From: an uncultured virus (IMG/VR IMGVR_UViG_3300034101_006118)
Taxonomy: Duplodnaviria > Heunggongvirae > Uroviricota > Caudoviricetes
DNA length: 64,000 nucleotides
Reading direction: 5' to 3' (one strand)
Virus record (IMG/VR): IMGVR_UViG_3300034101_006118
This document shows positions 1,714-53,369 of this stretch, piece after piece; position 1 is the first letter of the stretch, and every line of letters begins with the position of its first letter. The position numbers and the translations under genes were made by a program. The notes under the pieces are model-generated. The model was not told the DNA's origin. It saw only the letters and a list, made by a program, of their open reading frames with translations, and searched no databases.

Positions 1714-2601
1714 ATGAAAATTGCAATGTGCCCACTAGTAAGCAGAGATCTTCCAAAAGCTATCAGAGCAACCAATTCTTGTAGAAATCAATTTCCAACT
1801 GAACAATTTCAAGTTGAAACAGTTGCAATTGTTAACTCAAAGAATCAAGAATTCATAGATGAGTTCTGCTCATGGTGCGAATCTGAACAAGTAAAATATG
1901 TCATTACTGAATCAAATGGAACACCAAGCAGAGGAAAAAATAGCGTTCTTCAGTTTCTTAGAGACTCGGACTATGACGGAGTAAGCATGACAGATGGAGA
2001 TGATTTAGTCTATCCAACTGGAGCTTTGCAAATTGAAAGACATCTTCTTCACCATCCAACCACAGATGTTTTGATAGTTAAGCCTTCTGATCAAGTTACA
2101 AACCATGAATCATATGGAAGTGTTCAAATTAAAGAAGGAAACTATGCTGTTTGTTGGGGTATGAATATTGTTAAGTTGGGATATACTTATGGTCCCGGTA
2201 AAAGCGAAATATTTAATTCAGGACATTTTGCAGCAAGAAATTTAGGAGGACATGTTTTTTATAGCAAGAAGGTTGCACAACTTGTTCAATATGATGAAGA
2301 ACAATTGTTGGGAGAAGACTTGCTTTTAGAATTTAATCTTCTCAAGCTTCATCAAGAAAGAAAAATATGTTTTTGGTTAAGTTTTGCAAGTGATGTACAG
2401 ATGCTAGACAGAACTGAGCAAGAAAGTATTCAATATACAAAGAATGGAACAGATGGGGCTCAATCTTTTGAAAGGTTAATTCAAAAAGTGAGAGAGATAT
2501 TGCCTGAAGACAGAAGTTCATTTGATGAATTGCCCGTAGAGTTCCCAGAATTGTTATTTTCACATGGCGAAAAAATTGAATGGTTGAAGCAAGTTTTTTG
2601 A
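1714..2601 (+). CDS. glycosyltransferase family 2-like protein
   Basis: SNGTPSRGKN, DGDD (DxD) and GED motifs; ATG at 1714 chosen within ORF 1633-2601. Confidence 0.7.
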   Translation: MKIAMCPLVSRDLPKAIRATNSCRNQFPTEQFQVETVAIVNSKNQEFIDEFCSWCESEQVKYVITESNGTPSRGKNSVLQFLRDSDYDGVSMTDGDDLVYPTGALQIERHLLHHPTTDVLIVKPSDQVTNHESYGSVQIKEGNYAVCWGMNIVKLGYTYGPGKSEIFNSGHFAARNLGGHVFYSKKVAQLVQYDEEQLLGEDLLLEFNLLKLHQERKICFWLSFASDVQMLDRTEQESIQYTKNGTDGAQSFERLIQKVREILPEDRSSFDELPVEFPELLFSHGEKIEWLKQVF

Positions 2602-2608
2602 AAATTGA

Positions 2609-2637
2609 TTGCAAAAAAGAATCTAAGTGATTACAAT
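2609..2637 (+). promoter_or_regulatory. sigma70-type promoter (TTGCAA-N17-TACAAT)
   Basis: Consensus-like hexamers with 17-nt spacing; directly precedes the structured non-coding region. Confidence 0.6.
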
Positions 2638-2643
2638 AAGAAA

Positions 2644-3150
2644 TGGCTAAGGGTAATTCTCACTCATTCCGCTCACAAGGTGTTATGAGTTAAGCCCAAA
2701 GCAAAGACAGAAGAAGGTTTCGCACTTAAAGACTTTCATCGTGATTGTCGCCTTTAATGTCTTTGTTGTCAAACCTGCGAGGCCCTTACCAAGGGTGGGT
2801 CTTTGTAGTTGTTCTACAACGAATGCTTTAACGGGAAGCATTGTACTCGCAGCAGCAGAGGTCAAGCCGGATAGAAATGATGCTGACTCTCAAGAAAAAC
2901 CCCTGTAGTTTGTTTTGCAAAAAGCAAATGAGAAATGGAAAATTCTTGAGCTATTCGGTTTTAGGTTTGCTGCAAATAAAAGTGCGCCATCTGACTCAAT
3001 CCCAAGAAGTTATTGCTGGAGTAAATAGGTTTAGTAAACAAGAATATGGCTTAAACGCCAAAAAATTGCTCTACTAAACAAGTTTACTCAATATCTCACT
3101 TTTAATGTGATATATACAGCAATAACCATTTGGGTCAGCATCCCGTTCTA
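2644..3150 (+). ncRNA. candidate large structured non-coding RNA (~500 nt), family unassigned
   Basis: More than ten nested helices with G-U pairs on the + strand, a GCAA tetraloop, upstream promoter, no convincing ORF. Confidence 0.65.
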
Positions 3151-3216
3151 GTTTTTGATTGTAAATAAAAAAAACAAATTACCTAAATTAACAAATTTTT
3201 GCATAATTTAACATGA

Positions 3217-3245
3217 TTGACCTAACTGCTTTTTTCGGCTATAAC
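3217..3245 (+). promoter_or_regulatory. sigma70-type promoter (TTGACC-N17-TATAAC) for polA operon
   Basis: Near-consensus hexamers, 17-nt spacer, ~60 nt before ATG 3307. Confidence 0.6.
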
Positions 3246-3306
3246 CTGACGAAGAATTAGCCTTCACTCACAGAGTGACGGAAAATGGCCTACAAGCTGG
3301 TGATTC

Positions 3307-4644
3307 ATGTATTTTGACTCTTTGTCCAAGTTGCTCTGTCAAATCGAGCGTAAGCCCCTTTTCTTGCGATTTAATCCCACTCCTTTTGATTTCACGGACA
3401 AGGATTCAGTCAATGAGATGCAATTCTTTCTTCCTGATGGTGTCACATTTCAAATTTTGCTCAAGGATGAATCTTTGCCTTTGGTTTTGAGTATGTTGCA
3501 GTTGTCTGTTTTTTCTGGCGACAACAAAGTCTTCGCATGGGATTGGAAATCATTTATTTCACATGTTCTTGCAAAGACTGGCAAGTTATATTCTATTGAA
3601 TCATCTGTTGTTGATCTTAAGATTTTAGAAAGTTACAACGGAATCAAGAAATCATGTCCTGAGACATTTGTTGAGTGTTTTAACAGAATAAAGTATTTGG
3701 TATCATCTGGTCTATGGAAAGACTGTGAAAATATTTACAAGAAGATTCATTTGCCTTTGATGACAAATGTCATTCCTTATTTGGAAACAGTAGGCATTCT
3801 TGACTTGAATGCTGGCAAGAAGGTTCATGCTCATTATGAGATTGATGGTCAGGAGAATGGCAGATTAAGATGTCACAATGCTTTTAAGAATGGTTTTGTG
3901 CCACATGCAATGGGATCGGATATCAAGGAGAAGTTGAAGCCTGTCGGCTATGATTCTCTTTTCATGGCTTTTGATTACAAGGGCATGGAAGCGTTTGTTC
4001 TTGCCTATTTGAGCAAAGACGAAAGGTTGATGAGTTTTTGTCAGGAAGAGGACATTTATGCTTCTTTGGCAAAGTCATTATTTGGATCGAATTCTGAAAA
4101 AATTGATCGTGAATTGGTGAAAAAATGTTTTTTGCCGGTTATATATGGACAGTCGGCCCGTTCTCTTTCTTTGCGTTGCGGAATGGCTGCTGATGTCGCA
4201 GAAGGCGTTGTGGAACGAATTAGTTCTTTGTTCAATACTGCGCTTTCATTCGTTGCTGATTGTGAAGAAAAAGTAAAACAAAATGGATTTGCCAAAGATG
4301 TTTTTGGTAAAAGAAGAAACAACTTTGAGTTAGGCAAGGAATATTTAGCCAGAAACTTTGCTGTGCAATCACCCGCATCAACGATATGTCTTGAGAAACT
4401 TATCAATCTTCATATTTCCATACAAAACTTAAATCAAAGCTTGAAGGATAAGGCTCAAATTTCTTATACTGTTCATGACGGTTATGTTTTGTATGTTACG
4501 AAGGATAATTGGAAACAAGTTTACAAGAGAAGTATGGAAGCATTGTGCGGAGAATCCGAGCTTTGTCCCGGTCTGCGACTGAAGGTTTCATGTCGTGGAG
4601 GGAGAAACCTGAATGACCTGAAAATGATTAAAGATCGAAAGTGA
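3307..4644 (+). CDS. polA: compact family A DNA polymerase
   Basis: ENGRL, motif A DYKGME, motif B RxxxKxxxLxxxYG, NFAVQS, motif C VHDG. Confidence 0.8.
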   Translation: MYFDSLSKLLCQIERKPLFLRFNPTPFDFTDKDSVNEMQFFLPDGVTFQILLKDESLPLVLSMLQLSVFSGDNKVFAWDWKSFISHVLAKTGKLYSIESSVVDLKILESYNGIKKSCPETFVECFNRIKYLVSSGLWKDCENIYKKIHLPLMTNVIPYLETVGILDLNAGKKVHAHYEIDGQENGRLRCHNAFKNGFVPHAMGSDIKEKLKPVGYDSLFMAFDYKGMEAFVLAYLSKDERLMSFCQEEDIYASLAKSLFGSNSEKIDRELVKKCFLPVIYGQSARSLSLRCGMAADVAEGVVERISSLFNTALSFVADCEEKVKQNGFAKDVFGKRRNNFELGKEYLARNFAVQSPASTICLEKLINLHISIQNLNQSLKDKAQISYTVHDGYVLYVTKDNWKQVYKRSMEALCGESELCPGLRLKVSCRGGRNLNDLKMIKDRK

Positions 4645-5204
4645 AGGAAAAAATGATTGAGATTGTTCACAATTTTCCGATAACAGAAGAAGAATTTTTG
4701 GACCTTGACAAGAAATTTTCAAAGCTTTGCTGGCATGCTGCTCACGAATTGAAGAAGAAAAACACAAACAATAATTTCATTGATGATCCTGAGGACATTA
4801 AACAAGAATTACAAATGAGCATGCTTCGTGCCGGAAGCTATTACAAGAGACAGGTTTATATTGAGAAGTGTCTTGATATTGCTAAGAAGTTCGTCGAGGA
4901 CAAATTAATTTTGAAGGTTTTATTGGAACTGGAAAATCTTTGGGAAAATAGGACTAGGCATGGTGCCAATAGGCAAAAGTATGGTGCTTTCCAAGAGAAT
5001 CTTCTTGAAAAGATTATTCGTAATTTTGTGCCGAAGGAAAATAGGCCAAACAAGAATGCGCCTTTGAAAATGGACAGCAAGTTTGTGACTTATTGCAAGG
5101 CCATCGTATGGAATGGCCAGAAATCGATGGGCAAGAAGATCACTAGGGAAAAATCAATTCGTAGTGGTATGGTTTCTTTGAGCGAGTTTGAATTTTTGCA
5201 TTGA
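4641..5204 (+). CDS. sigma-70 region-2-like protein (possible late sigma factor)
   Basis: EDIKQELQMSMLRA ... SKFVTYCKAIVWN resembles sigma regions 2.2-2.4; no region 4; ~185 aa. Confidence 0.45.
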   Translation: MKEKMIEIVHNFPITEEEFLDLDKKFSKLCWHAAHELKKKNTNNNFIDDPEDIKQELQMSMLRAGSYYKRQVYIEKCLDIAKKFVEDKLILKVLLELENLWENRTRHGANRQKYGAFQENLLEKIIRNFVPKENRPNKNAPLKMDSKFVTYCKAIVWNGQKSMGKKITREKSIRSGMVSLSEFEFLH

Positions 5205-5424: not shown

Positions 5425-6957
5425 ATGCGTGAACTTACACCAGAAGAACAAGCTCAACTTGAGTCGATGACCGATCCAGAGGTGATCAAGCCTAAGTTTG
5501 CGTGGGATGATACATTTCAGCGCAAATTGCTTGCGATGCTTTTAACTGACGAATACATGCTTGTTCAAGCCATGGACAAAGTGAAGCCAGAGTATTTTAG
5601 CAATGAAGCTCATACTCTGATCTGCAAGATACTGATTCAACATTTTACCAAGGAAAAGGTCCGTCCTAGCGAGTGGATTATTCAGCAGGAGTTGAATAAT
5701 TCTTTGAAGGATAGAGACAGAACAATTCAGCTTCATTATGCGGCTGAATTGAAAAGTATTTATGATTACTACACTTCCGGTTTAGACAGTCGTGAATACC
5801 TTATTGATAAGGTGACTTACTTTGCTAAGGTTCAAGCAGTAAAGCTGGCATTTCATGCTTCTTTGGAAAAGATGCAAGAGGCACCAGAAGACGAGAAGAC
5901 TTGGGGTTTTGTATACGAAAAAATGCGCCAAGCCATGCTCATTGATAGAAGTTATGAGCCCGGTCTTGAATACTTCATGAACATCGAAGAGATGTTCAAA
6001 AGAATGGAAGATGTGTTCGTAGGCAAAGAGAGGTTTACATCAGGATTTCCATCTATTGATAATGCTCTGACTGGAGGTGGTTTATTTATTGGTCAGATAG
6101 CAAGTTGGATTGGTTTGCCCGGTACTGGAAAGTCTCTTGCTCTTGTAAAGGCTGCTGTTGAAAATGTTCTTTTGGGACACAAGGTTCTTTACATCACATT
6201 GGAAATGGATGAACTTGGTATTGTTCAGCGTTTTACAAGTCAATTTGCGAAAAAGGACATCAATAACCTTAGGCAGATGAAAGAAGAAATCAAAGAGACG
6301 ATAGAAGAATTCAAGAAAGACAAAGTTGATCCTAACCTTTTGCATGTCAAACAATTTCCCGGTGGCCAACTTGATGTCAATGGCATCAGAGCATATATGG
6401 CACAATTAGAGCTTCGTGGATGGAAGCCAAATGTGCTTATTGTTGACTATGTTGGCGAAATGAAAGATGATCCTTCCGTCAAGAAATATGAATCTGCATA
6501 TCGTATTCTTCGTGATCTAAGGGGATTTGGTGTTGAAAAAGGACATGTAACATTTACATGTGTGCAGCCAAATCAGACTGCGGCAAAGTTGGAAATTGGG
6601 CAATATATTGACGAATCCAATATCGGCACAAGCTTTGACCAGTTCAAGCCATTGGATGCTTTTTGGTCAATTAACCAGCAAGTTCTCGAAAAAGATGCCG
6701 AGGTTGGAAGAATTTTTGTCATTAAGCACAGAAATGGTCGATCAAGATTTAGCTTTAAGATTGGATTTGATTATAAGATTGGTACATTGGACATGTTTGA
6801 AATTAGCAAGGATACATATCGTGAGCGCATGAACTTAGTACAAGAGAAGAAAGCGGAAGAAGTTACTATGGACAATGTGGGCGATGCTTCATCCGGTGGA
6901 AAAAAGCAGCGCAGCAAGAAAGGTTTCAATCCAGAAAACGACACATACGAGGCTTAA
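5425..6957 (+). CDS. dnaB: DnaB/T4 gp41-like replicative helicase
   Basis: Walker A GLPGTGKS, ITLEM, LIVDY, KHRNG arginine finger. Confidence 0.9.
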   Translation: MRELTPEEQAQLESMTDPEVIKPKFAWDDTFQRKLLAMLLTDEYMLVQAMDKVKPEYFSNEAHTLICKILIQHFTKEKVRPSEWIIQQELNNSLKDRDRTIQLHYAAELKSIYDYYTSGLDSREYLIDKVTYFAKVQAVKLAFHASLEKMQEAPEDEKTWGFVYEKMRQAMLIDRSYEPGLEYFMNIEEMFKRMEDVFVGKERFTSGFPSIDNALTGGGLFIGQIASWIGLPGTGKSLALVKAAVENVLLGHKVLYITLEMDELGIVQRFTSQFAKKDINNLRQMKEEIKETIEEFKKDKVDPNLLHVKQFPGGQLDVNGIRAYMAQLELRGWKPNVLIVDYVGEMKDDPSVKKYESAYRILRDLRGFGVEKGHVTFTCVQPNQTAAKLEIGQYIDESNIGTSFDQFKPLDAFWSINQQVLEKDAEVGRIFVIKHRNGRSRFSFKIGFDYKIGTLDMFEISKDTYRERMNLVQEKKAEEVTMDNVGDASSGGKKQRSKKGFNPENDTYEA

Positions 6958-11544: not shown

Positions 11545-12371
11545 TATTTTTCCTCTCTGAGATAATCGCTTATACGACCAGCAAGGTAGGCATCGCAATA
11601 TTCTTTTTGTGAACTCCATCCAAATTCATAATGTTCTTTGTTGCCTAAGAAACCTGTAACCCAAAAGTCGATATTATTTTCCATTCTGTATCCCCAAGAG
11701 GTGAATGTTTTTACTTTTGCGGCTGGTCCCCATATGGCGCTCCAACTATCACAAGCCAAAACCAAATCTGCTTCGTAAATTGTAAAAGCCAACGATTCCA
11801 GAATCGACCATGAACCTATTTTGTTAATTGTCTTCTCTATTGTTTCTTTTTTCATGCATGATTGATATGGATCGTTTGGTCCTCCAACCATTAATATTTT
11901 GAAACCTTTTTCATGAAGAATGTTTACACATCTATCCCATGTAGGCACATACCAGTCCAAAAACTGCTGAGGCTTCATCTCAAGGCTTACTGGTTGCAGA
12001 ACTGCAACTTTTTCATTTTGCTTTTTTTCTGGTATGTACTTTCTTAAATCAACCCATTCCTTGATGTCATGACTGTTGCGAAAGTTCATTGGCTGGAATA
12101 TTTTACAATTATATTTTTTACTGAAATAAAATGAACTGTCATTGTCGTAGTCGATGTCATATTCAATTTTTTTGATGAAATTACAAGAATCAAGAATTGT
12201 CTTAACATTTTGGCAACTTTTTTTCACTTTGCCGTGCGATTTGAATATTGGGGATGTGTGGACGATTGTTGATTGGAGATTTCTCTCTGTCATTGCGATA
12301 TTGGCTCTGCACAGGTTAAGTCCTGTATCTCCAATCGCTCCTGTTTCAAAGTAAATATGTAGGTCTTCCAT
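11544..12371 (-). CDS. GT-B (GT9-like) glycosyltransferase
   Basis: GAIGD near N-terminus, ACDSW motif; TAATG coupling to glf. Confidence 0.6.
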   Translation of the reverse strand: MEDLHIYFETGAIGDTGLNLCRANIAMTERNLQSTIVHTSPIFKSHGKVKKSCQNVKTILDSCNFIKKIEYDIDYDNDSSFYFSKKYNCKIFQPMNFRNSHDIKEWVDLRKYIPEKKQNEKVAVLQPVSLEMKPQQFLDWYVPTWDRCVNILHEKGFKILMVGGPNDPYQSCMKKETIEKTINKIGSWSILESLAFTIYEADLVLACDSWSAIWGPAAKVKTFTSWGYRMENNIDFWVTGFLGNKEHYEFGWSSQKEYCDAYLAGRISDYLREEK

Positions 12372-12407
12372 TACTCTGATAAAGTTTAGGAGTGCAAAAA
12401 GTGATAC

Positions 12408-32232: not shown

Positions 32233-34308
32233 ATGAACAAGCTGCAAAAAGTGATTTCAAATTTCAATCGTGAACAGTTCAAGGCAATCAATACTGAAAT
32301 TTCTTTCTCAGAATATATTGATCTTTGCTATCAAAATCCAAAACTCATCCGTAATTCATGGCAGACCATCTATGACATGATCATGGAAAAGGGAAGTTAT
32401 CCTGTTGAGGAATACCGCAAGACATATGTCAATTACAAGTTTTTTGATGATCCAGATTGTCCAATCGTTGGCTTGACCCCGATGAAGGACTCTCTCGTCA
32501 AGTTTATCAAGGGAGCGGCAGGCGGATACGGGACAGAACGCAGAATTCTTCTTCTTCATGGACCTGTTGGCAGTTCAAAGTCAACTATTCTCAGACTTAT
32601 CAAGAGAAGTCTTGAGAAATACAGCAAGACTGATGCTGGAGCTTGGTATAGCTTCAAATGGGTGAATCTTCCTACAGGCGCTGATGGGATCTACAACAAC
32701 CCAGAATGCGAATGCCCAATGCACGAACAACCTCTTAAGTTGCTCCCCAAGGAAGTTCGTGGACAAATCATTGCAGATATCAACAGGATTCATGAAGAAA
32801 TCGCAACTCCACAAGAGAGGAGCGATATTTACACTCTTAAATGCAATGACGAACTTGATCCTCTTTGCAATTTCTTTATGAACGAACTTCTGAAGAGATA
32901 CGAGGGTGACCTTCAAAAAGTTCTTGACAACCATATTAAGGTCGTCAGAAAGGTCCATTCTGAAGCCAATCGTTGTGGAATCGCAACATTCCAGCCCAAA
33001 GATGAAAAGAATCAAGACAGCACAGAGCTAACAGGTGATATTAACTTCCGTAATATCGGAAACTTTGGTTCAGACAGCGATCCAAGATCATTCTCTTTTG
33101 ATGGAGAATTCTGTGCTGGCAACAGAGGAATAATCGAGTTTATTGAAGCACTTAAGCTCGATACTGCATTCCTTTATGACCTTCTTGGTGCATCCCAAGA
33201 ACAAAGCATCAAGCCAAAGAAGTTTGCTCAAGTAAGCATTGACGAGGCAATTTTTTCGCACACAAACGATCCAGAATTTCAGAAGCTCAAGAGCAACCAA
33301 TATATGGAAGCTTTCCGTGATCGTACAACCAAGATTGATGTTCCTTACACCCTTAGATGGAACGAAGAGCTAAGGATTCTTGAAAAGGACTATGGTCCCG
33401 GTAAAGTTCGCCAACACATTGCTCCTCACACTCTTGAAATTGCCGCTTTGTGGAGTGTATTGACTCGTCTTGCTGACGATAAAGATGGCAAGATTAGCCT
33501 TGTCGAGAAGGCAGAACTTTATGATGGCAGGCTTCTTGCAGGATGGACTGAAGATTCTGTCAAGGAACTAAAAGACAAGTATCCCGAAGAGGGCATGAGT
33601 GGTGGGATTTCAGTTCGATATCTACAGGACAAGATTTCCAACTGCCTTGCCAACAATCATGACTATGTCAACATGTTCATGGTTCTCAATGAATTGCGTG
33701 ACGGCCTTGACCATTGCAGCTTGCTTACCAATAAGGAGCAAGTTGGCCGTTACATCACTTGTATCGATCTTGCAGTCAAGAAGTTGACTGAAATCTTGAA
33801 AGCGGAGGTTCAGAAGGCTTTGGTCGGCGATAAGGAAGCGATTAAGCGTCTTTGCTCAAACTACATCGATAACCTCATGGCATATATCAACAAGAGCAAG
33901 ATTAAGGATCAGATCACTGGCCAAGACCGCAAGCCAGACGAAAGGCTGATGCGTCAGATTGAGGAAAAGATTCAGATTCCAGATACTGGATGTGATGATT
34001 TCCGCCGTCAGATTGCCGCCTTCATCGGCCATCTTGCTCATGAGGGCAAGAGTTTTCAATGGGATTCCAATCCTAAGCTTCGCAAGGCTCTTGAGGCGAA
34101 ACTTTTCGAGGATGTCAAGGACACCATCAAGTTAAGCGCACTCAATATGAGCGGAGCGAGTGTTGTTGACAAAGACTTGCAAGAAAAGATTGATGCAGTC
34201 AAGACAAGACTCGTTAAAGAGTTTGGATACAACGAGAGAAGTGCAACGGATGTTCTAGAATTTGTTGGCGGAATTTTCTCCCGTGGCGATCTAGCCGAAG
34301 ACGAGTGA
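32233..34308 (+). CDS. prkA: PrkA/YeaG-family AAA+ protein (serine kinase family)
   Basis: LLHGPVGSSKST, CPMHEQPL, PKDEKNQDSTELTG, SDPR, NRGIIEFIE. Confidence 0.93.
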   Translation: MNKLQKVISNFNREQFKAINTEISFSEYIDLCYQNPKLIRNSWQTIYDMIMEKGSYPVEEYRKTYVNYKFFDDPDCPIVGLTPMKDSLVKFIKGAAGGYGTERRILLLHGPVGSSKSTILRLIKRSLEKYSKTDAGAWYSFKWVNLPTGADGIYNNPECECPMHEQPLKLLPKEVRGQIIADINRIHEEIATPQERSDIYTLKCNDELDPLCNFFMNELLKRYEGDLQKVLDNHIKVVRKVHSEANRCGIATFQPKDEKNQDSTELTGDINFRNIGNFGSDSDPRSFSFDGEFCAGNRGIIEFIEALKLDTAFLYDLLGASQEQSIKPKKFAQVSIDEAIFSHTNDPEFQKLKSNQYMEAFRDRTTKIDVPYTLRWNEELRILEKDYGPGKVRQHIAPHTLEIAALWSVLTRLADDKDGKISLVEKAELYDGRLLAGWTEDSVKELKDKYPEEGMSGGISVRYLQDKISNCLANNHDYVNMFMVLNELRDGLDHCSLLTNKEQVGRYITCIDLAVKKLTEILKAEVQKALVGDKEAIKRLCSNYIDNLMAYINKSKIKDQITGQDRKPDERLMRQIEEKIQIPDTGCDDFRRQIAAFIGHLAHEGKSFQWDSNPKLRKALEAKLFEDVKDTIKLSALNMSGASVVDKDLQEKIDAVKTRLVKEFGYNERSATDVLEFVGGIFSRGDLAEDE

Positions 34309-34355
34309 TGATTGAATTAACTTTATAAAAAGGTGACGATCAGTAAGGAGGATTC

Positions 34356-34577
34356 ATGACCATTCAGAACCATTGGTTACAGTCTGCTCAAGTCAAGCAA
34401 CTCATGAAAGAAATTGATGAGATTGCTATGGATATTTGGTCACAAGATGGAACTCTTGGCGATCTGTTTTCTGCCTTGAATGACGATCATACTGATCTTC
34501 TTTTCTCGATGAAGATCAAGGACTTTGCAAGCGATCCAAATGACATGTCATGCGGTATCGAGCTTGTTTCTCCTTAA
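34356..34577 (+). CDS. small acidic hypothetical protein inside the prkA operon
   Basis: Strong AAGGAGG SD. Confidence 0.65.
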   Translation: MTIQNHWLQSAQVKQLMKEIDEIAMDIWSQDGTLGDLFSALNDDHTDLLFSMKIKDFASDPNDMSCGIELVSP

Positions 34578-34583
34578 CCAGAA

Positions 34584-34606
34584 AGGAATCCGTCACAAGA
34601 TGACGG
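34584..34606 (+). promoter_or_regulatory. CRISPR-handle-like hairpin upstream of yeaH
   Basis: AGGAATCCGTC-ACAAGAT-GACGG, 19/23 identical to repeat 3' handle, ends 7 nt before ATG. Confidence 0.55.
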
Positions 34607-34613
34607 TTAAGCT

Positions 34614-35831
34614 ATGCCTCGTCGCATTCATGAAGATTGGCAGCATTTCCGTGATGTAATTTCAGGGCGAATCAGAAAAGCCCTGAAAAAATTCATCAAG
34701 AGCGGACAGATCGTCAAAAATCGTGGAAAAAATGGCAAGATTTCCATTAACATCCCGAAAATTGACATTCCTCATATTGTTTATGGAAATAGTGGCGAGG
34801 GAGTTGGAAGAGGGGATGGTAAAGAAGGAGATGTCATAGGCAAAGATCCGCAAAATGGCAAGGGAAAAGGCAATGGAGCAGGTCAAGGAGAGGCTGAAGG
34901 AATCACAATCAATCTTGATTTGGAAGATGTCCTGAGGTTTATGCAGGACGAACTTCAACTCCCAAATCTAAAGAAAAAGCCAAATGAAATTTACGATGAA
35001 ATTAAAATCAAGTATAACAATATCAGTCTGATAGGACCAGAATCTCTTAGGCACAATAGAAGAACTCTCATGCAGACCTTGAAGCGTCAGGCTGCTGAGG
35101 GAACTCTTGAAAAACTAAATCATGTTGCTGGAATTAAAGACCCAGTCAGAGTTCTACAGCCAATCAATGAAGATAAGAGATACAGACAATTTAACGAAAT
35201 TAAAATACCAAGCAGTAATGCTTTGATTGTCTTTGCCCGTGACGGATCTGGTTCCATGGATCAGGCCAAGTGTGAAATCGTCAGTGATATGGCTTGGTGG
35301 ATCGATGTTTGGATTCGTCGTTTCTATGATCGTGTTGATCGCCTCTATGTTTGGCATGATAGTGAGGCCATGGAGGTTGATGAAAATAAATTTTATAAAT
35401 ATCGATTCGGAGGAGGAACAAATTGCTCCTCTGCTCTTAAATTTATTTCCAAGCAATTTGAGAACAGATATCCTCCAGAAAAGTGGAACATTTATGTTTT
35501 CTACTTTACAGATGGCGACAACTGGGGAGAAGACAATCAGATTTTCATTGATACTCTTGCCAATGATTTTAAGCCTAATGTAGTCAATTTTACGGGTATC
35601 ACACAGATTCTCGCATCATCCTATTCTGATTCAATCAAGCATCATGTTGATGAAGCGATTAAACAAGGCAAGCTTGACAAGGATTGCGTCAGGACTGTTG
35701 CAATAGGTGGTAGTCCAGATGGAAGGTCTTTGTGGACAGCGCCAAGTTTGAGCGATGATAATAGGAATGAGCAAATCATGGAAGCAATTCAACAACTTCT
35801 AGGAAACCCAAGTAAACTATCAAGGGAATGA
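34614..35831 (+). CDS. yeaH: YeaH/YhbH (DUF444) VWA-like protein
   Basis: Gly-rich GDGKEGDVIG, LPNL, DGSGSM MIDAS, GGT, WNIY.FYFTDGDN. Confidence 0.92.
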   Translation: MPRRIHEDWQHFRDVISGRIRKALKKFIKSGQIVKNRGKNGKISINIPKIDIPHIVYGNSGEGVGRGDGKEGDVIGKDPQNGKGKGNGAGQGEAEGITINLDLEDVLRFMQDELQLPNLKKKPNEIYDEIKIKYNNISLIGPESLRHNRRTLMQTLKRQAAEGTLEKLNHVAGIKDPVRVLQPINEDKRYRQFNEIKIPSSNALIVFARDGSGSMDQAKCEIVSDMAWWIDVWIRRFYDRVDRLYVWHDSEAMEVDENKFYKYRFGGGTNCSSALKFISKQFENRYPPEKWNIYVFYFTDGDNWGEDNQIFIDTLANDFKPNVVNFTGITQILASSYSDSIKHHVDEAIKQGKLDKDCVRTVAIGGSPDGRSLWTAPSLSDDNRNEQIMEAIQQLLGNPSKLSRE

Positions 35832-35832
35832 T

Positions 35833-37428
35833 ATGAGCAGTAAATTTTTTCATGGTTCTAGCCTGCTTATGGGTGACAATACCGTTCCCGGTGTTCAACT
35901 TTCAAAAGAACTTAAAGAATACATACCCAAAATTCTTCAAGCATGTCGTGATTGGGGCCTTGATTTCTATCCCACAGTTGTCCAGTTGTTGACATATGAC
36001 GAAATTAGCGAAGTTGCCGCTTATGGTGGTTTCCCTGTCCGTTTTCCACATTGGTCATTTGGGATGGAGTACGAAGAGCTACAGCGTGGATATGAATTCG
36101 GTGGACACAAGATATACGAAATGGTTGTCAATTGTAATCCATGTTACATTTATAATCTTGCTTCAAACACTCTTGCTGACCATCTGACTGTTGTTGCACA
36201 TGCGACAGGACACAATGACTTTTTCAAGAACAATATTCATTTCAGCGCAACTGACACGAATATGATGAATAAAATGGCGAATCATTCTGCTAGGATTCGC
36301 AATTATATGAGCAGATGGGGCAAAGAAAGAGTAACTGAATTCCTTGATCATGTTATGCGTTTAGAAACACTTATTGATGGTTCAGATGCTTGGACAGATA
36401 GGGTTATAAAAGATAGGAATATTCGTGATGAAAGAAAGTACAATAAGCCTCAATTATTGAATGTTGATAAGCAAAGGCTTTACATGGAGCCTTTCATCAA
36501 TACTACTGCATTTCGTAAGAAGCAGAATGAAGATGTTCATGAGAGAGACATAGCAGACGAAATTGGCTTATTCAAGGAACCAACTAAGAACATTTTGGGA
36601 TTTATTCGTGATAATGCTCCATTAAAGCCTTGGCAAGCCGATATTGTCTCTATGCTTTATGAGGAGGCGATTTATTTCTTCCCTCAAAGACAAACTAAGG
36701 TTGGGAACGAAGGATGGGCCTCCTTAACGGACTCTGTAATCATGGCAGAGCAGGGATTCATAAGCCTTGGTCAAAAGTCTGATGATTGCGGCATTGTTGA
36801 ATACGCTGATCATAAAATGGGTGTTCTTGGTGGGAAATACAGTATGAATCCTTACAAGTTGGGATTCTACTTATTTTCTGATATTCGTGAGCGTTGGGAC
36901 AAGGGAAGATTTGGGCAAGAGTACGAAGAATGCACGGACATGCACAAGAAAGAGAATTGGGATACAGGTGCTATGCTCGGCAAGGAAAAAATCTTTGAAG
37001 TCAGGAAGTATTATGATGACCTGACTATGATCCATGAATTCTTTACAGAAGAGTTTTGCCGAAAACAGGAATATTTCCATTGGAAACATTATCCAAACGG
37101 AGAATACAGGCTTGAATCCCGTGATTATCAAAAGATCAAGAAGGGTTTGATGCAGAGGCATGTTAATGGTGGACTTCCAGACATTAGACTCATGGAGCCA
37201 AATTACGGTGGTCGTGGAATCATGATGCTTCAACATTTTTCTGACGGAAGGCCTCTTCACGATCCTTACATTGGTGATGTTTTAAGTTCAATCCGTTTTA
37301 TTTGGAATAATGATGTTATTCTTTCAACAAACTCCGATGATGGTAAGGAAAGGGTTTATTGGCAAAGAGCCAATTACCTTGATATCACGGATAGGTCTAA
37401 ATTCGACAAATCTTTGAATAATTTCTGA
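35833..37428 (+). CDS. spoVR: SpoVR/YcgB-family protein
   Basis: GFPVRFPHWSFG, KIYEMVVN, HATGHNDFFKNN, PQRQTK.NEGWAS, NPYKLG. Confidence 0.93.
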   Translation: MSSKFFHGSSLLMGDNTVPGVQLSKELKEYIPKILQACRDWGLDFYPTVVQLLTYDEISEVAAYGGFPVRFPHWSFGMEYEELQRGYEFGGHKIYEMVVNCNPCYIYNLASNTLADHLTVVAHATGHNDFFKNNIHFSATDTNMMNKMANHSARIRNYMSRWGKERVTEFLDHVMRLETLIDGSDAWTDRVIKDRNIRDERKYNKPQLLNVDKQRLYMEPFINTTAFRKKQNEDVHERDIADEIGLFKEPTKNILGFIRDNAPLKPWQADIVSMLYEEAIYFFPQRQTKVGNEGWASLTDSVIMAEQGFISLGQKSDDCGIVEYADHKMGVLGGKYSMNPYKLGFYLFSDIRERWDKGRFGQEYEECTDMHKKENWDTGAMLGKEKIFEVRKYYDDLTMIHEFFTEEFCRKQEYFHWKHYPNGEYRLESRDYQKIKKGLMQRHVNGGLPDIRLMEPNYGGRGIMMLQHFSDGRPLHDPYIGDVLSSIRFIWNNDVILSTNSDDGKERVYWQRANYLDITDRSKFDKSLNNF

Positions 37429-41132: not shown

Positions 41133-41310
41133 TGCGAGTGATTGGGTGCCGTAGCAAATTCAGCACCCTCTCGCAATTCGTAAATCTTTAACTTGATTCG
41201 TTTTAAGCGAATCTGCTCTTTGACAAGTAGGTGATTATGGGGATTTGCGGGTGACCCTCTCGCAAAGAATGGCGTAATCTTTTATGCAGTATGGCTTTGT
41301 GAGGTGAGCC
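41133..41310 (+). promoter_or_regulatory. CRISPR leader with direct and inverted repeats
   Basis: ACCCTCTCGCAA at 41165 and 41254; TGCGAG/CTCGCA inverted pair; degenerate repeats lie at the far end of the array. Confidence 0.7.
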
Positions 41311-42002
41311 CTCTCAATGCCTTAGAAATCCGTCCAAAGTTGACGGGGCAGAATTGCTGTGAGTATCCAAAATGGATTTGAGGCTCGCAATGCCTTAGAA
41401 ATCCGTCCTTGGTTGACGGTGTCCTTCAGAGCGAGCAAAGTTTCCCAAGAAATACTCTCAATGCCTTAGAAATCCGTCCAAAGTTGACGGCGTGATTCCC
41501 TTGTGCAGATTGGGCGGCACGGGCACTCTCAATGCCTTAGAAATCCGTCCAAAGTTGACGGCTGATCTCCATTTCTGATTGACGGGCATCAGCGGCACTC
41601 GCAATGCCTTAGAAATCCGTCCAAAGTTGACGGGACAGCGGACCTAAAGCGATGGCGAAAAACTTACAAACTCGCAATGCCTTAGAAATCCGTCCAAAGT
41701 TGACGGTCGTAATAGAGGGGGACTGTTGCCCCGTCCTCAATTGCTCGCAATGCCTTAGAAATCCGTCCTTGGCTGACGGGAAACTGGTTGATATGCTATC
41801 GATTCGAGTGTATTTCTCGCAATGCCTTAGAAATCCGTCCAAAGTTGACGGGTTAGGTGTCATCCCGATCCATCCTACAGGTTGGAGACCTCTCAATGCC
41901 TAAGAAATCCGTCCATAGTTGACGGACGGTACTCTGATAAGGACTGCCAGAACCCAACCGATAGTACTCTCAATGCCTAAGAAATCCGTTCAAAGTTGAC
42001 GG
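41311..42002 (+). CRISPR. CRISPR array, 10 x 36-nt repeats, 9 spacers (35-41 nt)
   Basis: Repeat CTC(T/G)CAATGCCTTAGAAATCCGTCCAAAGTTGACGG starting at 41311, 41384, 41455, 41526, 41598, 41671, 41744, 41816, 41890, 41967. Confidence 0.98.
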
Positions 42003-43337: not shown

Positions 43338-44801
43338 TTGAAAGATTTAGAAAATAGCAATAAGATGACTGGAAGGGTTATTGGCATGGACATGAAAGAA
43401 GTGTCAATGAAGATGGAGATTACCGGCTACGAACATCTTCATCTTCATTCGGATTTTTCAACCTTGGATGGATTCGGCCAAGTTGAAGAGTATTGTGTCC
43501 GTGCGCCGAAAATTAATCAAAATTTTCTTACTATTTCTGATCACGGGATGATGGGAGCGGTTCCTCGTCAAATTAAAGGATGTGAAAAGATCAATGACAA
43601 ACTTGGTAAGGATACTTTGTCCCCAATTTTTGCAGTTGAGTTATATGTAAATCGCTTGCAAACTGAGATGACGGAAGAGAATGAAGGTAAGAAAATATAT
43701 TCAAGCCTTACTGAAATAGAACAAAACGAGTTCAAAAGTAGCAGCCATCTTCTTGCTATAGCTACAAATCAAGAAGGATATAAGAACCTTGTTCGCTTGT
43801 CGTCATGGGGTTGGACAAAAGGATTTTATCGTCGCCCCAGAGTCAATTATGAACAAATTAAAAAATACAAGGAAGGAATTATTTTTACTTCTTGCTGTTA
43901 TGCAAGCGAGATAGGAAGAGCATTTGAAAGAGGTGGGGAAGACGAAGCGAACAATATGATTGAAAGATATATTGAAATGTTCGGTAAGGAACATTTTTAT
44001 CTTGAGATTATGCTTCTCGATTTTAAGAAGCAAAAGCCTTATGACAAATTTATTGTTAAGGCAAAAGAGCGATATGGATTGAAAATTATACTTTCAAATG
44101 ATGTCCATTATTGCAACAAAGAGGATAGTCATTATCAAAGATTGATGCTGATGATTCAGACAAATCGTACAATTGCTGAAATTGAAAAGGCATTAAAAGA
44201 AGATTCGGATCAAGATTTTTTTGAGTTGCAGGATGCCAATCTTTGGATGAAGAGTGAAGAAGAATTAAATGCAAAGTGGTTGTCAGATTATGCGGACACT
44301 ATTCCTTATGAAATATTCTGCGAGGCAAAGAGAACTACTGTTGATATTTGCAGGAAAGCAAAAGGTGTTCAGCTTGATAGGAGCTTAAAGTTGCCTGTCA
44401 TTCCTGATGGTGATGATAAGCTTAAAGAGGAAATTATGATTGGTTTCCAAAGTCGTGGATTGCCTAAAAATAGAGAATATTTAGATAGAATAAAAGAAGA
44501 ATATAGTCTTATTACGAGGAAGGGATTTACAAGTTACTTTCTAATACAAAAGATGATGACAGATGAGGCTAGAAGGGTTTGTCGTGATATTTTGGGTTTT
44601 GGTGATGGTTCACAGGCTGTTGGTCCGGGTCGTGGGAGTTGTTGTGGTTCCCTTATTTGTTATTGTCTTGGAATCACAAGTGTTGATCCAGTTCGTGAAG
44701 GATTGCTTTTCAGTCGCTTTATGAGTGAAGCTCGTGGAGGCAGAAGTCTTAAATTGGAGTTCAGCAATATTGACCCCTTGCCTCCTGATGAGTTGTCTTA
44801 A
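43338..44801 (+). CDS. dnaE: DNA polymerase III alpha, N-terminal part (PHP domain to GRGS/FSRF motifs)
   Basis: HLHLHSDFSTLDG, SDHG, HL, NDVHY, GPGRGS..GSLICYCLGIT.VDP, LLFSRF; true start probably ~43413. Confidence 0.9.
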   Translation: MKDLENSNKMTGRVIGMDMKEVSMKMEITGYEHLHLHSDFSTLDGFGQVEEYCVRAPKINQNFLTISDHGMMGAVPRQIKGCEKINDKLGKDTLSPIFAVELYVNRLQTEMTEENEGKKIYSSLTEIEQNEFKSSSHLLAIATNQEGYKNLVRLSSWGWTKGFYRRPRVNYEQIKKYKEGIIFTSCCYASEIGRAFERGGEDEANNMIERYIEMFGKEHFYLEIMLLDFKKQKPYDKFIVKAKERYGLKIILSNDVHYCNKEDSHYQRLMLMIQTNRTIAEIEKALKEDSDQDFFELQDANLWMKSEEELNAKWLSDYADTIPYEIFCEAKRTTVDICRKAKGVQLDRSLKLPVIPDGDDKLKEEIMIGFQSRGLPKNREYLDRIKEEYSLITRKGFTSYFLIQKMMTDEARRVCRDILGFGDGSQAVGPGRGSCCGSLICYCLGITSVDPVREGLLFSRFMSEARGGRSLKLEFSNIDPLPPDELS

Positions 44802-47393: not shown

Positions 47394-47747
47394 GGGGCCG
47401 TATTTAGAATTCGATTCGGATGGACGGCTTGCAAGTGGCATGTAGAGGTTGGTTAGAAGGCCTCTTAAAAATCTAACCAAAGCCTTAACTGGCGAAACTG
47501 TTTACTCTTTGGCTGCATAAGTGCAACCACAGACTTAGGTAGCAATGCTAGTAGCGACCGAAAGTTTGATGTAAAATCTGGCTGGTCACATGTAGTTCAA
47601 CGGGCAAGTGACGAGATTAAGTTGATAGAGCTTGGATGGGGTTTATTTGTTGTTCCCTTCAAGTCCACAATAAACAATAAGATAAACATGTAGATGCTTG
47701 CAGACAGTTATGCGAAGACAGCGGGGCAGGTCCGCTCGGCTCCACCA
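47394..47747 (+). ncRNA. ssrA: tmRNA, tag (A)GETVYSLAA
   Basis: Acceptor stem GGGGCCG/CGGCTCC-ACCA with G3-U; tag ORF 47491-47520 after TAACT; 354 nt. Confidence 0.95.
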
Positions 47748-50615: not shown

Positions 50616-53369
50616 ATGCTTCATCTCTGGCAGATAAAAATGATTAATGATAAGGCAAGGTTTGTTGATCTTCTTGATTCTGCCATGAAGTCTAGAGGAC
50701 TTTCTGGCAAAAAGTTATATGAAAAAAGGCTTAAGTGGGAAACAGAAGAAATCCTTGCAAAGGATAAGCAAAGTTATTTTCTTGATCTTTTTGACAGGAA
50801 GATTAAGTATCCATCCAATCAAAATAATTTACTGGTTTGTTGGCTTCTAGGCATAGTTCAAGACTTTGATATTAATGATGAGCCAGCGAATCATTTTACG
50901 GGTGATTTGCCTGATGTGGACATTGATTATATTCCCATGGTCAGGGATTATTTGAAAAATGAATGGGCACCTAAAACATTTGGCGAAGAATATGTTTGCA
51001 ACATTGGCAACTATACCACATTCGGGATTAAGTCGGCTTTAATTGACATGGCAAGGGTTCATGGTGAGAGTCGTGAAGAGGTTATGGCTGTCACTAAAAA
51101 CCTTGACGCTAAGGACGACGAAGGAAATCCAATCACATGGGATGCCGCCATAAGACTCGATCCTGATTTCAAATCTTATGTTGAAAAGTATCCTTCTGTG
51201 GCAGAGGCAACTAAAAAACTAATCAATCGTAATCGTGGAATGGGAGTTCATGCAGGAGGCTTGATTATATCAAGAAATCCAATTCACGATCTTGTTCCTC
51301 TAGTGAAAAGAAAGGATAACCCGCAAGCAAGTGCTTGGGTAGAGGGTCTTCATGGACAAGACTTGCAACCTGTGGGTTTGGTTAAATTTGATTTATTAGT
51401 TATTTCAAACCTTTTACAAATTGCTCGTTGTTGTGAGATGGTAAAGAGCAGGCGTGGAATAACCAGTATTTGTGGAAGGCCGGGAGAGCCTGATTGGTCT
51501 GATGTCGATTCTTGGAGAAATGACGCAGATTCTTTGGCCATGGCCAATTCCGCTGATCTCAAGTGCATATTCCAATTTGATTCGGAAGGTATTCGTGGCC
51601 TTGTGAGAGCAGGAGGAGTAGATCGATTTGAGGATTTGGTGGTTTACTCAGCGATTTTTCGTCCCGGCTGTTTGAAAGTTTTAATGGACAAGCGTTATGT
51701 TGAGCGCAAGAAAGGTCGTGAAAAATTTGAATTGCATCCACTAATCAAGCCAATCCTTGAAAAAACTTATGGAGTCATGGTTTATCAAGAACAAATCATG
51801 AAAATATTGCATGTCGTTGGTAATATTCCTCTTAAAGATTGTGAGGCTGTAAGAAAGGCGATTAGTAAGAAGAAAATTGAATCAATTGCAAAATATAAAG
51901 ACATGTTCATTGAAAATGGAATGAAAAATTTAAGTTACACCAAAGAACAAATGGAGGAATTTTTTGCACAGATACTTTCTTTCAGCGAATACGGATTTAA
52001 TTTATCGCATGCCGTGGCTTACAATTACATAAGCATGTATCTTTTGTATCTCAAATCTCATTATCCTCCTGAATTTTATGCAAGCATGCTGTCATGTGAG
52101 ACAGTGAGTGATAAAATAAAAGATTTCAAAATGGAGGCAAAGATACATGGCGTTAACATGCACAGGCTTGATATCAATAAGTCAAAAGTGAATTTTGAGT
52201 TAGTTGGCGACATGATTTATTATGGTTTTTCAAATGTAAAGGGAATTGGAGAAGGTCCGGCTCAAAAGATAGTTTCCAATCAACCTTATTCATCTTTTGA
52301 AGATTTTCTTTATAGATGCAGCACGGACTCTTCAATACTTAAACCAATTTTAGGACTGCGTTGTTTTAGGGATCGTGATCCTATTACATTGTGGAAGTTT
52401 GCTGAACATTTCAAGGATTGCTTGAAGAAAAATGAAGACAGGAGAAAAAGGTTTGAGGCTATTTTGCAGAAGTACGAGGAAGATTTGAAGATTTTGTTGC
52501 CAGAATGTGGTTTTAAGTTATCTGATCTTAAAGGTGAATCTCCATTTGATGGAAGAGAATATCAAGAAAAATATGATATTAATGAAGAAATTGAGGTTTT
52601 GAAAGAATATGAATGTGATCCTAGTGAGGGTGTTGGCCGAATTGAAATGGAAACTATGATAGTAGATGGTACTGATGTGACAATTGAAAGAGAAGTGATG
52701 AGGCACTATAAAAAAATTGTTACAAAGAGGCCTTGGAATAGATGGAATGAGTTGAAGAAGTTGTGGGTCAAGAGACTTAGGTCAATTCAGAAATTTTCCG
52801 AAACTGAAATGAGATCTTTGCCGAAGCTAATTGGATTCGACGCAGACAAATATGATGTTCCTAAAGAACTTGAGAAGGATTTTAGGAATCCTATTCTTTG
52901 TGAGGAAAAGTATTATGGTTTTGCTTGGATACATGAGCTTGAAAGAAGTCCTGATTATAAAGGCAATCTGACTTTTGATGCTATTCGTAGCAATCATGAT
53001 GGATCAAGTGGTCCTGTTGAGTTGAAAATTAAGAAAGTTGAAGAAAAGACTAGCAAGAAGGGATCAAGTTATTGGCAGATTGCAGCGGAAGATGTGACGG
53101 GCCAAGAAAATAAAATAAATATTTGGGCTGATGATTGGAATAGGTGGAGCAAGGAATTTGTCAAAGGTAACTTACTTAGGGTAAGGCTTCAGCCTCCAAA
53201 TGGGGGATTTCCAACATTTTTGTTGGAATCAAATCAGGGTAGTGGAAGATTCCGATTCCAGAAAAAATATCATGATAAGGAAGACGATCCTAGAGTCATT
53301 ATTATGAGGTTTGGTAAGGCTGAAGAAGAAAAGCATATGACTGATGAGGAAGTGTTGAATTTGCTTTAA
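50616..53369 (+). CDS. dnaE: DNA polymerase III alpha, C-terminal part (palm PDxDxD, fingers, HhH, OB)
   Basis: LPDVDIDY, GVHAGG, KFDLL, IFQFDS, RPG, TYGVMVYQEQIM, YGFNLSHA, VKGIG. Confidence 0.92.
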   Translation: MLHLWQIKMINDKARFVDLLDSAMKSRGLSGKKLYEKRLKWETEEILAKDKQSYFLDLFDRKIKYPSNQNNLLVCWLLGIVQDFDINDEPANHFTGDLPDVDIDYIPMVRDYLKNEWAPKTFGEEYVCNIGNYTTFGIKSALIDMARVHGESREEVMAVTKNLDAKDDEGNPITWDAAIRLDPDFKSYVEKYPSVAEATKKLINRNRGMGVHAGGLIISRNPIHDLVPLVKRKDNPQASAWVEGLHGQDLQPVGLVKFDLLVISNLLQIARCCEMVKSRRGITSICGRPGEPDWSDVDSWRNDADSLAMANSADLKCIFQFDSEGIRGLVRAGGVDRFEDLVVYSAIFRPGCLKVLMDKRYVERKKGREKFELHPLIKPILEKTYGVMVYQEQIMKILHVVGNIPLKDCEAVRKAISKKKIESIAKYKDMFIENGMKNLSYTKEQMEEFFAQILSFSEYGFNLSHAVAYNYISMYLLYLKSHYPPEFYASMLSCETVSDKIKDFKMEAKIHGVNMHRLDINKSKVNFELVGDMIYYGFSNVKGIGEGPAQKIVSNQPYSSFEDFLYRCSTDSSILKPILGLRCFRDRDPITLWKFAEHFKDCLKKNEDRRKRFEAILQKYEEDLKILLPECGFKLSDLKGESPFDGREYQEKYDINEEIEVLKEYECDPSEGVGRIEMETMIVDGTDVTIEREVMRHYKKIVTKRPWNRWNELKKLWVKRLRSIQKFSETEMRSLPKLIGFDADKYDVPKELEKDFRNPILCEEKYYGFAWIHELERSPDYKGNLTFDAIRSNHDGSSGPVELKIKKVEEKTSKKGSSYWQIAAEDVTGQENKINIWADDWNRWSKEFVKGNLLRVRLQPPNGGFPTFLLESNQGSGRFRFQKKYHDKEDDPRVIIMRFGKAEEEKHMTDEEVLNLL

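Follow-up and report, generated by a model that had tools for sequence, protein, structure and literature searches.

Organization of the locus

The DNA analysed here, referred to as the window, is a stretch of 64,000 nucleotides from an uncultured virus of the Caudoviricetes, and forms part of the genome of a huge lake phage. Close to its beginning, a gene-free gap of 705 bp (2602-3306) lies between an ORF of 322 aa (1633-2601), to which protein family searches assigned no family, and the start of a gene for a family-A DNA polymerase, polA (3307). An earlier analysis of the letters alone, here called the sequence-only reading, had described a gap of about 700 bp opened by the sequence TTGCAA-N17-TACAAT and filled with a candidate structured RNA. 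Both the gap and the promoter-like sequence are real. Specifically, the exact pattern occurs a single time in the 64 kb, at the head of the gap, and predicts a transcription start near 2644. At the equivalent position, 12 of 17 relatives have a promoter-like site matching in 9 or more of 12 letters, two of them with a perfect TTGACA/TATAAT. The same reading had placed the RNA at 2609-3150; the locus is correct, while the 3' limit falls slightly short, since a further hairpin follows it (Table 1).

On the other side of the element, the conserved structure stops 57-159 nt short of the polA start in the 17 sequences compared, leaving the ribosome-binding site (RBS) of polA uncovered, and the intervening stretch looks A+T-rich when judged by eye. 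Promoter-like sites (8-10 of 12 matches) are found in this stretch in most relatives, and AU-rich, weak hairpin-plus-U sites follow the RNA tail in 9 of the 17 sequences; a canonical terminator between the RNA and polA was found neither in the window nor in 8 of the 17 relatives. These features bear on the possibility that the element is a long 5' leader of the polA messenger, that is, a cis-acting sensor or autoregulatory element setting the amount of polymerase. Such a leader would agree with an element that is always upstream of polA, co-oriented with it and at a near-constant distance, and with the missing canonical terminators. It fits poorly with promoter-like sites placed between the RNA and polA and with a structure that ends before an uncovered RBS; the operators of T4 genes 32 and 43, in contrast, are small and overlap the RBS. 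Moreover, a 500-nt leader with three pseudoknots would be far larger than the known operators of phage replication genes. We consider this explanation, one of the two main rivals of the reading preferred below, unlikely, if still worth keeping in mind.

On the minus strand, a promoter-like site (TTGACA-N17-GACAAT, 2772-2744) is directed antisense into the 5' domain. By eye, the remaining clade-A and clade-B sequences lack its -35 hexamer where they align with it, so that a ColE1-style antisense control is unsupported.

Table 1. Coordinates of the promoter, RNA elements and neighbouring genes in the window
Feature	Position	Strand	Remarks
Sigma-70-type promoter TTGCAA-N17-TACAAT	2609-2637	+	9/12 matches
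Structured RNA body	2644-3175	+	~500-540 nt; from fold z and conserved architecture, both ends predicted
5' domain	2701-2766	+	Hb 2701-2709/2758-2766 enclosing hairpin Hc 2714-2717/2751-2754
Pa, core four-way junction	2775-2781/2846-2852	+	Encloses H1, H2, H3
H1	2782-2796	+	Inside core junction
Conserved core junction GGGUCUUUGUA	2797-2807	+	Between H1 and H2
H2	2808-2820	+	Inside core junction
H3	2822-2842	+	Inside core junction
Domain II	2852-2973	+	Pb 2852-2859/2966-2973, then conserved internal loop, Pc, Pd
Pc	2864-2874/2951-2961	+	Domain II
Pd	2889-2896/2943-2950	+	Domain II
GCAA-capped hairpin	2908-2929	+	9-bp stem; window-specific, domain II
Conserved junction stretch	2976-2986	+	After domain II
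Domain III	3009-3126	+	Pf 3009-3018/3117-3126 enclosing long arm Pg/Ph plus Hi
Further helices in domain III	3019-3025/3083-3089 and 3029-3036/3072-3079	+	
UUAAAC-loop hairpin	3048-3059	+	Caps Pg/Ph arm; loop conserved
Variable hairpin Hi	3091-3115	+	Domain III
3' tail	3134-3145	+	PK1 3' strand 3134-3142, PK2 3' strand 3142-3145
Terminal hairpin, loop GAUUGUAAA	3151-3175	+	Weak; stems of differing sequence by eye only
PK1	2879-2887 with 3134-3142	+	Internal loop between Pc and Pd; nine Watson-Crick pairs
PK2	2832-2835 with 3142-3145	+	CGGG (H3 loop) with CCCG
PK3	2721-2727 with 2980-2986	+	Hc loop with junction after Pb
Family-A DNA polymerase (polA)	3307-4644	+	445 aa; PF00476, E 5e-30
187-aa protein	4641-5204	+	Downstream of polA, conserved
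DnaB-like replicative helicase	5425-6957	+	phrog_19, E 2e-48

Predicted architecture of the RNA

On the evidence of sequence, fold statistics and covariation, the gap encodes a non-coding RNA of about 500-540 nt with its own predicted promoter, in which a 5' hairpin domain, a core built as a four-way junction, a long irregular hairpin (domain II) and a Y-shaped 3' domain (domain III) follow one another. The + strand reaches a minimum free energy (MFE) of -162.2 kcal/mol against -123.5 +/- 6.2 kcal/mol in 100 dinucleotide shuffles (z -6.28, with 0 of 100 as good); this check, proposed with the sequence-only reading, thus gave a fold far better than the controls. In addition, all 16 relatives tested have a negative z, from -1.6 to -7.1. 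Every helix listed in that reading is present, with positions shifted by at most 1 nt, and its remark on G-U pairing on the + strand holds as well, the closing pair of H1, for example, being G-U in 14 of 16 sequences. The GCAA-capped stem that it had noticed exists too, but is an insertion peculiar to the window's phage; relatives have a conserved loop of 10-12 nt at the same place.

Three long-range pseudoknots, absent from the earlier list of helices and each of them covarying, lock these domains together. Specifically, the 5' loop pairs with the junction after domain II (PK3), and the 3' tail pairs both with the loop of a core hairpin (PK2) and with the internal loop of domain II (PK1). One pair of PK1 is CG in eight, UA in seven and AU in one of 16 sequences. 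PK2 reads CGAG/CUCG in clade B, with AU in eight and GC in eight sequences at the changed pair, and CAAG/CUUG in one further relative (L017). In PK3, the outer pair is CG in six, UA in three and AU in one sequence, and the inner pairs are UA in nine and CG in one, and AU in nine and GC in one. When the strands of each sequence were re-paired with those of other sequences, the true pairing was reached in 0 of 5000 permutations for PK1, 0 of 5000 for PK3 and 14 of 5000 for PK2, in a test that picked an alternative duplex in a few rows.

In principle, the conserved pairings could act in the DNA, as origin hairpins or cruciforms, with no RNA involved. The position of the locus at or near a turn of the GC skew (see below) would suit such a role, and the minus strand also folds better than chance (z -3.89). 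However, the + strand folds 19 kcal/mol better than the minus strand, the many conserved G-U pairs of the + strand correspond to A-C mismatches on the other one, a conserved promoter is directed into the element, and long-range pseudoknots make little sense in duplex DNA. A purely DNA-based role appears very improbable.

Conservation and covariation among relatives

Every relative found in PolA searches had a gap of 400-700 nt before polA, and alignment of these gaps exposed a shared core. Pattern scans for this core gave 26 and 31 stretches in viral contigs and 18 in metagenomes. Overall, 75 locus records carry the core, many contigs being represented twice among them, and they comprise 25 distinct sequences: 22 from 45 records, plus three later additions (L099, L111 and L116). 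The distinct sequences share from 37% to 100% pairwise identity and fall into three clades, the window grouping in a sub-clade with L099, L111 and L040.

Covariation was counted on two structure-blind MAFFT alignments. In ten clade-A sequences, 54 pairs including PK1-PK3 are formed in 93.4% of the cells, against 83.6% in shuffled alignments (0 of 500 as high) and 33-43% in slid controls, and both sides change in 23 pairs, where 12.7 were expected (0 of 500). With clades A and B taken together (16 sequences), 35 pairs are formed in 96.2% of the cells against 79.6% (0 of 500), with 21 pairs changing on both sides against 14.3 (0 of 500). A third alignment, fitted to the core covariance model R1 and therefore leaning towards the structure, has 23 distinct rows, two of them probably false hits; here 94.9% of the cells are paired against 70.5% in shuffles, and 19 of the 21 pairs show changes in both strands. 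The comparison of polA-upstream regions, which the sequence-only reading had put forward as a check, has in this way revealed many compensatory changes.

As to the single elements, Pa occurs among the relatives in at least nine mutually complementary sequence versions. Both sides change in 7 of 8 pairs of Pc (16-sequence alignment), in 3 of 5 pairs of Hc (10 sequences) and in 2 of 3 pairs of the stem of the UUAAAC hairpin. Pb, Pd, Pf, Pg, Ph, Hi and H2 are misaligned by MAFFT across clades; they were left out of the formal counts and judged from the folds of the single sequences instead. The architecture of domain II was recovered by independent MFE folds in 17 of 17 sequences, and the Y-shape of domain III in each of the 10 sequences of clade A, as well as, by eye and untallied, in most of clade B. 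Hb is matched in relatives by position-equivalent helices of differing sequence, again by eye, and the GAUUGUAAA loop of the terminal hairpin is kept in 10 of 10 clade-A sequences.

With R1, of which it is a seed member, the window reaches 89.4 bits, and it carries what defines the family, namely the core four-way junction and PK1, PK2 and PK3 upstream of an apparently thumb-less polA. Altogether, we are highly confident that a new, conserved and multiply knotted RNA family exists, previously uncatalogued and carried by huge freshwater phages.

Comparison with catalogued RNAs and coding genes

A search of the whole window against Rfam 15 at gathering thresholds returned only a tmRNA gene far from the locus. 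At E<=10, the region 2400-3500 gave just two chance matches, one (3134-3221) that overlaps the 3' tail and the terminal hairpin but runs along the minus strand, the other within polA (3382-3494); 12 relatives searched at E<=1 gave only two sub-threshold miRNA/snoRNA matches. The families of Rfam 15 that the RNA does not match include GOLLD, ROOL, OLE, raiA, HEARO, group I and II introns, RNase P and tmRNA. The impression that the locus bears no hallmark of RNase P, group I/II intron or tmRNA thus agrees with the proposed Rfam search, in which no family was matched. The suggestion of a new ornate phage RNA likewise stands, with covariation in three clades, a predicted promoter and no match in Rfam 15; its comparison with ROOL, GOLLD and OLE holds for the size class, not for homology. 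A blastn search of 2400-3400 against GenBank phages gave no match, and a full-text literature search found no description of this RNA in the portions of the texts covered, PMC12619734 among them.

The size and the pseudoknotted core might also recall a degenerate or unusual self-splicing intron, or a known ribozyme class missed by Rfam models, and one motif of the tail presumably bears a superficial resemblance to group I core sequences. Nevertheless, group I (RF00028), group II and RNase P models gave no match, neither at E<=10 in the window region nor at E<=1 in the 12 relatives, and by eye the order of the helices is unlike the P3-P7 topology. In addition, the PolA alignment begins at residue 1 and the genes upstream of the RNA differ in identity and strand, which argues that there is no upstream exon. 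We hold an intron or known ribozyme to be highly unlikely.

Even less probable, to a degree that makes it practically negligible, is a small protein-coding gene concealed in the gap. ORFs of 55, 78 and 60 aa do overlap the region; across all 17 relatives, however, such ORFs vary in length, location and strand, tblastn yields only short matches that are broken up over frames and no better on one strand than on the other, and the 78-aa and 60-aa ORFs have no Pfam family.

Linkage to polA and environmental distribution

In 72 of the 75 core records, polA lies downstream on the same strand, at a distance of 360-568 nt measured from where the core begins; in the remaining three there is no room for it. 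The core covariance model was then run over 79 polA loci, with polymerases of 29-100% identity, and matched 43 of them at E<0.01, each time upstream of polA and on its strand (43 of 43). Among the 36 loci with no core match, one has too little upstream DNA and at least two (L165 and L168) show by eye a recognisably related but reduced and divergent version. In at least four more distant loci (L180, L182, L195 and L199), a long ORF abuts polA with no gap, which indicates that this type of polymerase can exist without the upstream RNA. When the core was sought elsewhere in five genomes of distant polA relatives, the best E was 0.125, an uninformative result as the core diverges. Three bacterial matches of the pattern scan lack the flanking helices and have no score with the core model, and are therefore attributed to chance.

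Two PolA relatives of about 52% identity have a gap of about 800 nt before polA (L150:700-1505 and L159:715-1495). Its sequence is GC-richer and unrecognised by the core model, and may be either a very divergent member of the family or a different RNA.

The stretch occurs in DNA runs of lake and freshwater metagenomes, which come from 11 studies, and a second IMG/VR record, of 42.7 kb and rated 10% complete, is 100% identical over the 1101 bases compared (window 2400-3500). The analysis worked with an identical record (G001) and with relatives. Several long contigs belonging to different phages (137-189 kb, 109 kb and 77-80 kb) have one end lying 5-10 kb upstream of the element, which points to an assembly break that recurs there, due to a variable region, a repeat or a physical end.

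Presence in RNA libraries

In each of two metatranscriptome runs from fresh water, which belong to two studies, there is one contig 100% identical to the locus; the two cover 2684-2903 and 2683-2887, and 2300-2682 and 2904-3700 are uncovered. Among the RNA libraries, X20 covers only 3352-3615 of polA, from a variant strain, and X24 covers none of the locus. Considering the low depth, and because DNA can occur in such libraries, these contigs are only a weak hint of transcription. Both contigs on the RNA begin at 2683/2684, about 40 nt downstream of the predicted start, and this common end may reflect either processing of the RNA or an assembly break that both have in common.

The polymerase and its neighbours

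The polymerase belongs to a family of at least 191 clusters with about 435-445 residues. Its predicted structure (pLDDT 92) aligns with KlenTaq with a Z of 30.7 over 392 of 538 residues, and at the sequence level residues 172-427 match Taq 559-821. In the region that in Taq comprises the entire thumb and a portion of the palm, the phage protein presumably has a lone helix (136-162). The model apparently consists of an exonuclease-like fold, palm and fingers with no thumb, a call made from aligned ranges rather than from a residue-level alignment.

The protein encoded just downstream of polA is more conserved than the polymerase itself, with 60-79% identity in seven relatives against 39-63% for PolA. 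Its C-terminal third is invariant and strongly basic, and it has no Pfam or PHROG family. A fold search gave a best Z of 7.2, and at least 14 of 50 rows are region 2 of sigma factors (Z 5.5-6.8); a sigma-like nature is a weak lead, as these Z values are too low to indicate more than a helical bundle. Beyond the helicase gene, the window encodes gp32-like and RecA-like proteins and a DnaE-type polymerase.

GC skew and the probable replication origin

The sequence-only reading had proposed to look for an origin by means of the GC skew, and in four genomes the turning point falls at the locus or within about 5 kb of it, with gene orientation flipping nearby as well. In a relative rated complete by CheckV (G010, 532.7 kb), the cumulative skew reaches its minimum in the bin of 500-510 kb, and the skew changes sign from the bin that begins at 510001 to the one that begins at 512001; the RNA gap of this genome occupies 512.6-513.25 kb. 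In another (G003, 381 kb), the skew is flat for 70 kb and then rises from the bin that contains the element. A clade-B phage (G005) and the window's own phage (G002) have their turn at the locus or at most about 5 kb from it; in the latter, the boundary between divergent gene blocks is an intergenic space of about 30 nt, roughly 5 kb upstream, and no long non-coding stretch other than the RNA locus occurs near the turn. Genes on the minus strand inside the region of rising skew have a skew near zero rather than negative, which suggests, in a comparison that takes the two effects together, a strand bias beyond that of transcription. The RNA locus is probably at a replication origin, with the reservation that skew follows gene orientation as well as replication.

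Possible role in starting DNA replication

Taken together, the RNA would head a block of replication genes, directly before a stripped-down family-A polymerase and at or near the skew turn. It might be an origin transcript, or a primer extended by PolA before the DnaE-type enzyme takes over; alternatively, it might be a partner that holds PolA on its substrate. That the RNA works with PolA in starting DNA replication is the best-supported guess, because of the strict tie to polA, the position at a likely origin and the presence of a separate replicase, and we advance it tentatively, with somewhat less than even confidence. Counting against it are the at least four distant polA loci with no gap and the 36 of 79 polA loci with no core match; furthermore, replication genes often cluster near origins for other reasons.

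The more specific proposal of the sequence-only reading, a primer used by the adjacent PolA in the manner of ColE1 RNA II, could apply. It is favoured by the strict linkage to polA, by a second replicase of DnaE type in the same phage and by the skew turn at or near the locus in four genomes. A simple primer, on the other hand, is hard to reconcile with a 3' tail locked in two pseudoknots, and a ColE1-type primer with the lack of a conserved antisense promoter. A stronger version, in which the RNA is a part of the PolA machinery, either as a structured primer that the enzyme recognises and extends at the origin or as a subunit replacing the thumb, seems to us rather unlikely.

The RNA may also be a stand-alone ornate RNA unrelated to replication, such as a scaffold, a self-assembling particle or a host-takeover RNA, in the manner of ROOL, GOLLD or OLE; a host-type promoter and early expression would then be all that its place beside polA reflects. 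The three pseudoknots, together with unpaired junctions and loops of high conservation, suggest a function that depends on the fold. The element also has its own predicted promoter, many relatives have promoter-like sites before polA, weak hairpin-plus-U sites follow the RNA in 9 of 17 sequences, and the contigs from RNA libraries fall on the RNA. Against this stand a linkage to polA that is strict down to about 37% polymerase identity, while the upstream neighbours change in identity and strand; ornate phage RNAs described so far are not known to be tied to one gene in this way. This alternative strikes us as doubtful, with perhaps a modest chance of being right, and a role with PolA in the start of replication is the reading followed below.

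Relation to known systems

The closest analogy is ColE1, where RNA II acts with Pol I. Alike are a transcript of about 500 nt with its own sigma-70 promoter (here predicted) and a fold that matters, and, on the proposed reading, a family-A polymerase at the origin ahead of a Pol III-type replicase, both types being encoded here by the phage. Unlike ColE1, the present element belongs to a phage and not to a plasmid, shares no sequence or structure likeness with RNA II, has three covarying pseudoknots, two of which use the 3' tail, has no conserved antisense (RNA I) promoter and is associated with an apparently thumb-less polymerase. In ColE1, a persistent RNA-DNA hybrid at the origin is cut by RNase H to give the primer end; the phage RNA is known from its sequence. 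The R-loop origins oriF and oriG of T4 and the primary origin of T7 are similar in having a promoter-driven transcript beside an AT-rich stretch at an origin (here a predicted transcript, a stretch judged by eye and a probable origin). These transcripts are not known to need an elaborate fold, whereas the fold is the most conserved feature of the polA-upstream RNA.

GOLLD, ROOL (RF03087) and OLE, which are large, ornate and found in bacteria and phages, share with it the size class, the many helices and pseudoknots and the occurrence in phages; the RNA described here has no Rfam match and, unlike them, is tied to one neighbour gene. Retron msr-msd and the non-coding RNAs of DRT2 and DRT9 are likewise structured RNAs directly 5' of a co-oriented polymerase gene, with their own promoter. 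Here, in contrast, the neighbour is a PF00476 polymerase with a KlenTaq-like fold and not a reverse transcriptase (PF00078), and the setting is a replication module (DnaB, gp32-like, RecA-like, DnaE) and not a defence island.

It is rare for a new class of large RNA with an intricate fold to come to light, and most of the known ones (the ribosome, RNase P, introns and, recently, ROOL and GOLLD) have turned out to perform remarkable chemistry or assembly. In the present case the candidate partner is unusually clear, a minimal polymerase at a likely origin, so that the function can be tested directly with one RNA and one or two proteins. Should the RNA prove to be a primer or a thumb-replacing subunit, it would mark the first case of a family-A DNA polymerase system that depends on an RNA, and a mode of initiating replication that is new among viruses. 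If it primes or assists the polymerase, it would explain how phages of half a megabase begin to replicate, and would extend the idea of RNA-protein polymerases past reverse transcriptases and telomerase.

Other features of the window

Matches to a GAUUGUAAA-type motif, considered as a repeated phage promoter, number 22 in the window against 18.6 in shuffles, and are not commoner than expected. Two other gaps with no long ORF, 11620-12407 (788 nt) and 41133-41608 (476 nt), have no Rfam match at gathering thresholds. The tmRNA gene is full-length (47394-47747, 97.4 bits in Rfam), while ARAGORN reports no tRNA or tmRNA in the window. It lies between the two ORFs, about 5.8 kb apart, that encode the DnaE-type Pol III alpha: the first (43338-44801) carries PHP and the start of PF07733, and the second (50616-53369) the remainder of PF07733, the finger and HhH. 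The same interval holds three minus-strand ORFs, a glycosyltransferase/methyltransferase and an AAA protein. Finally, a PrkA kinase, DUF444 and SpoVR trio (32233-37428) represents an operon of bacterial stress/sporulation type in a phage.
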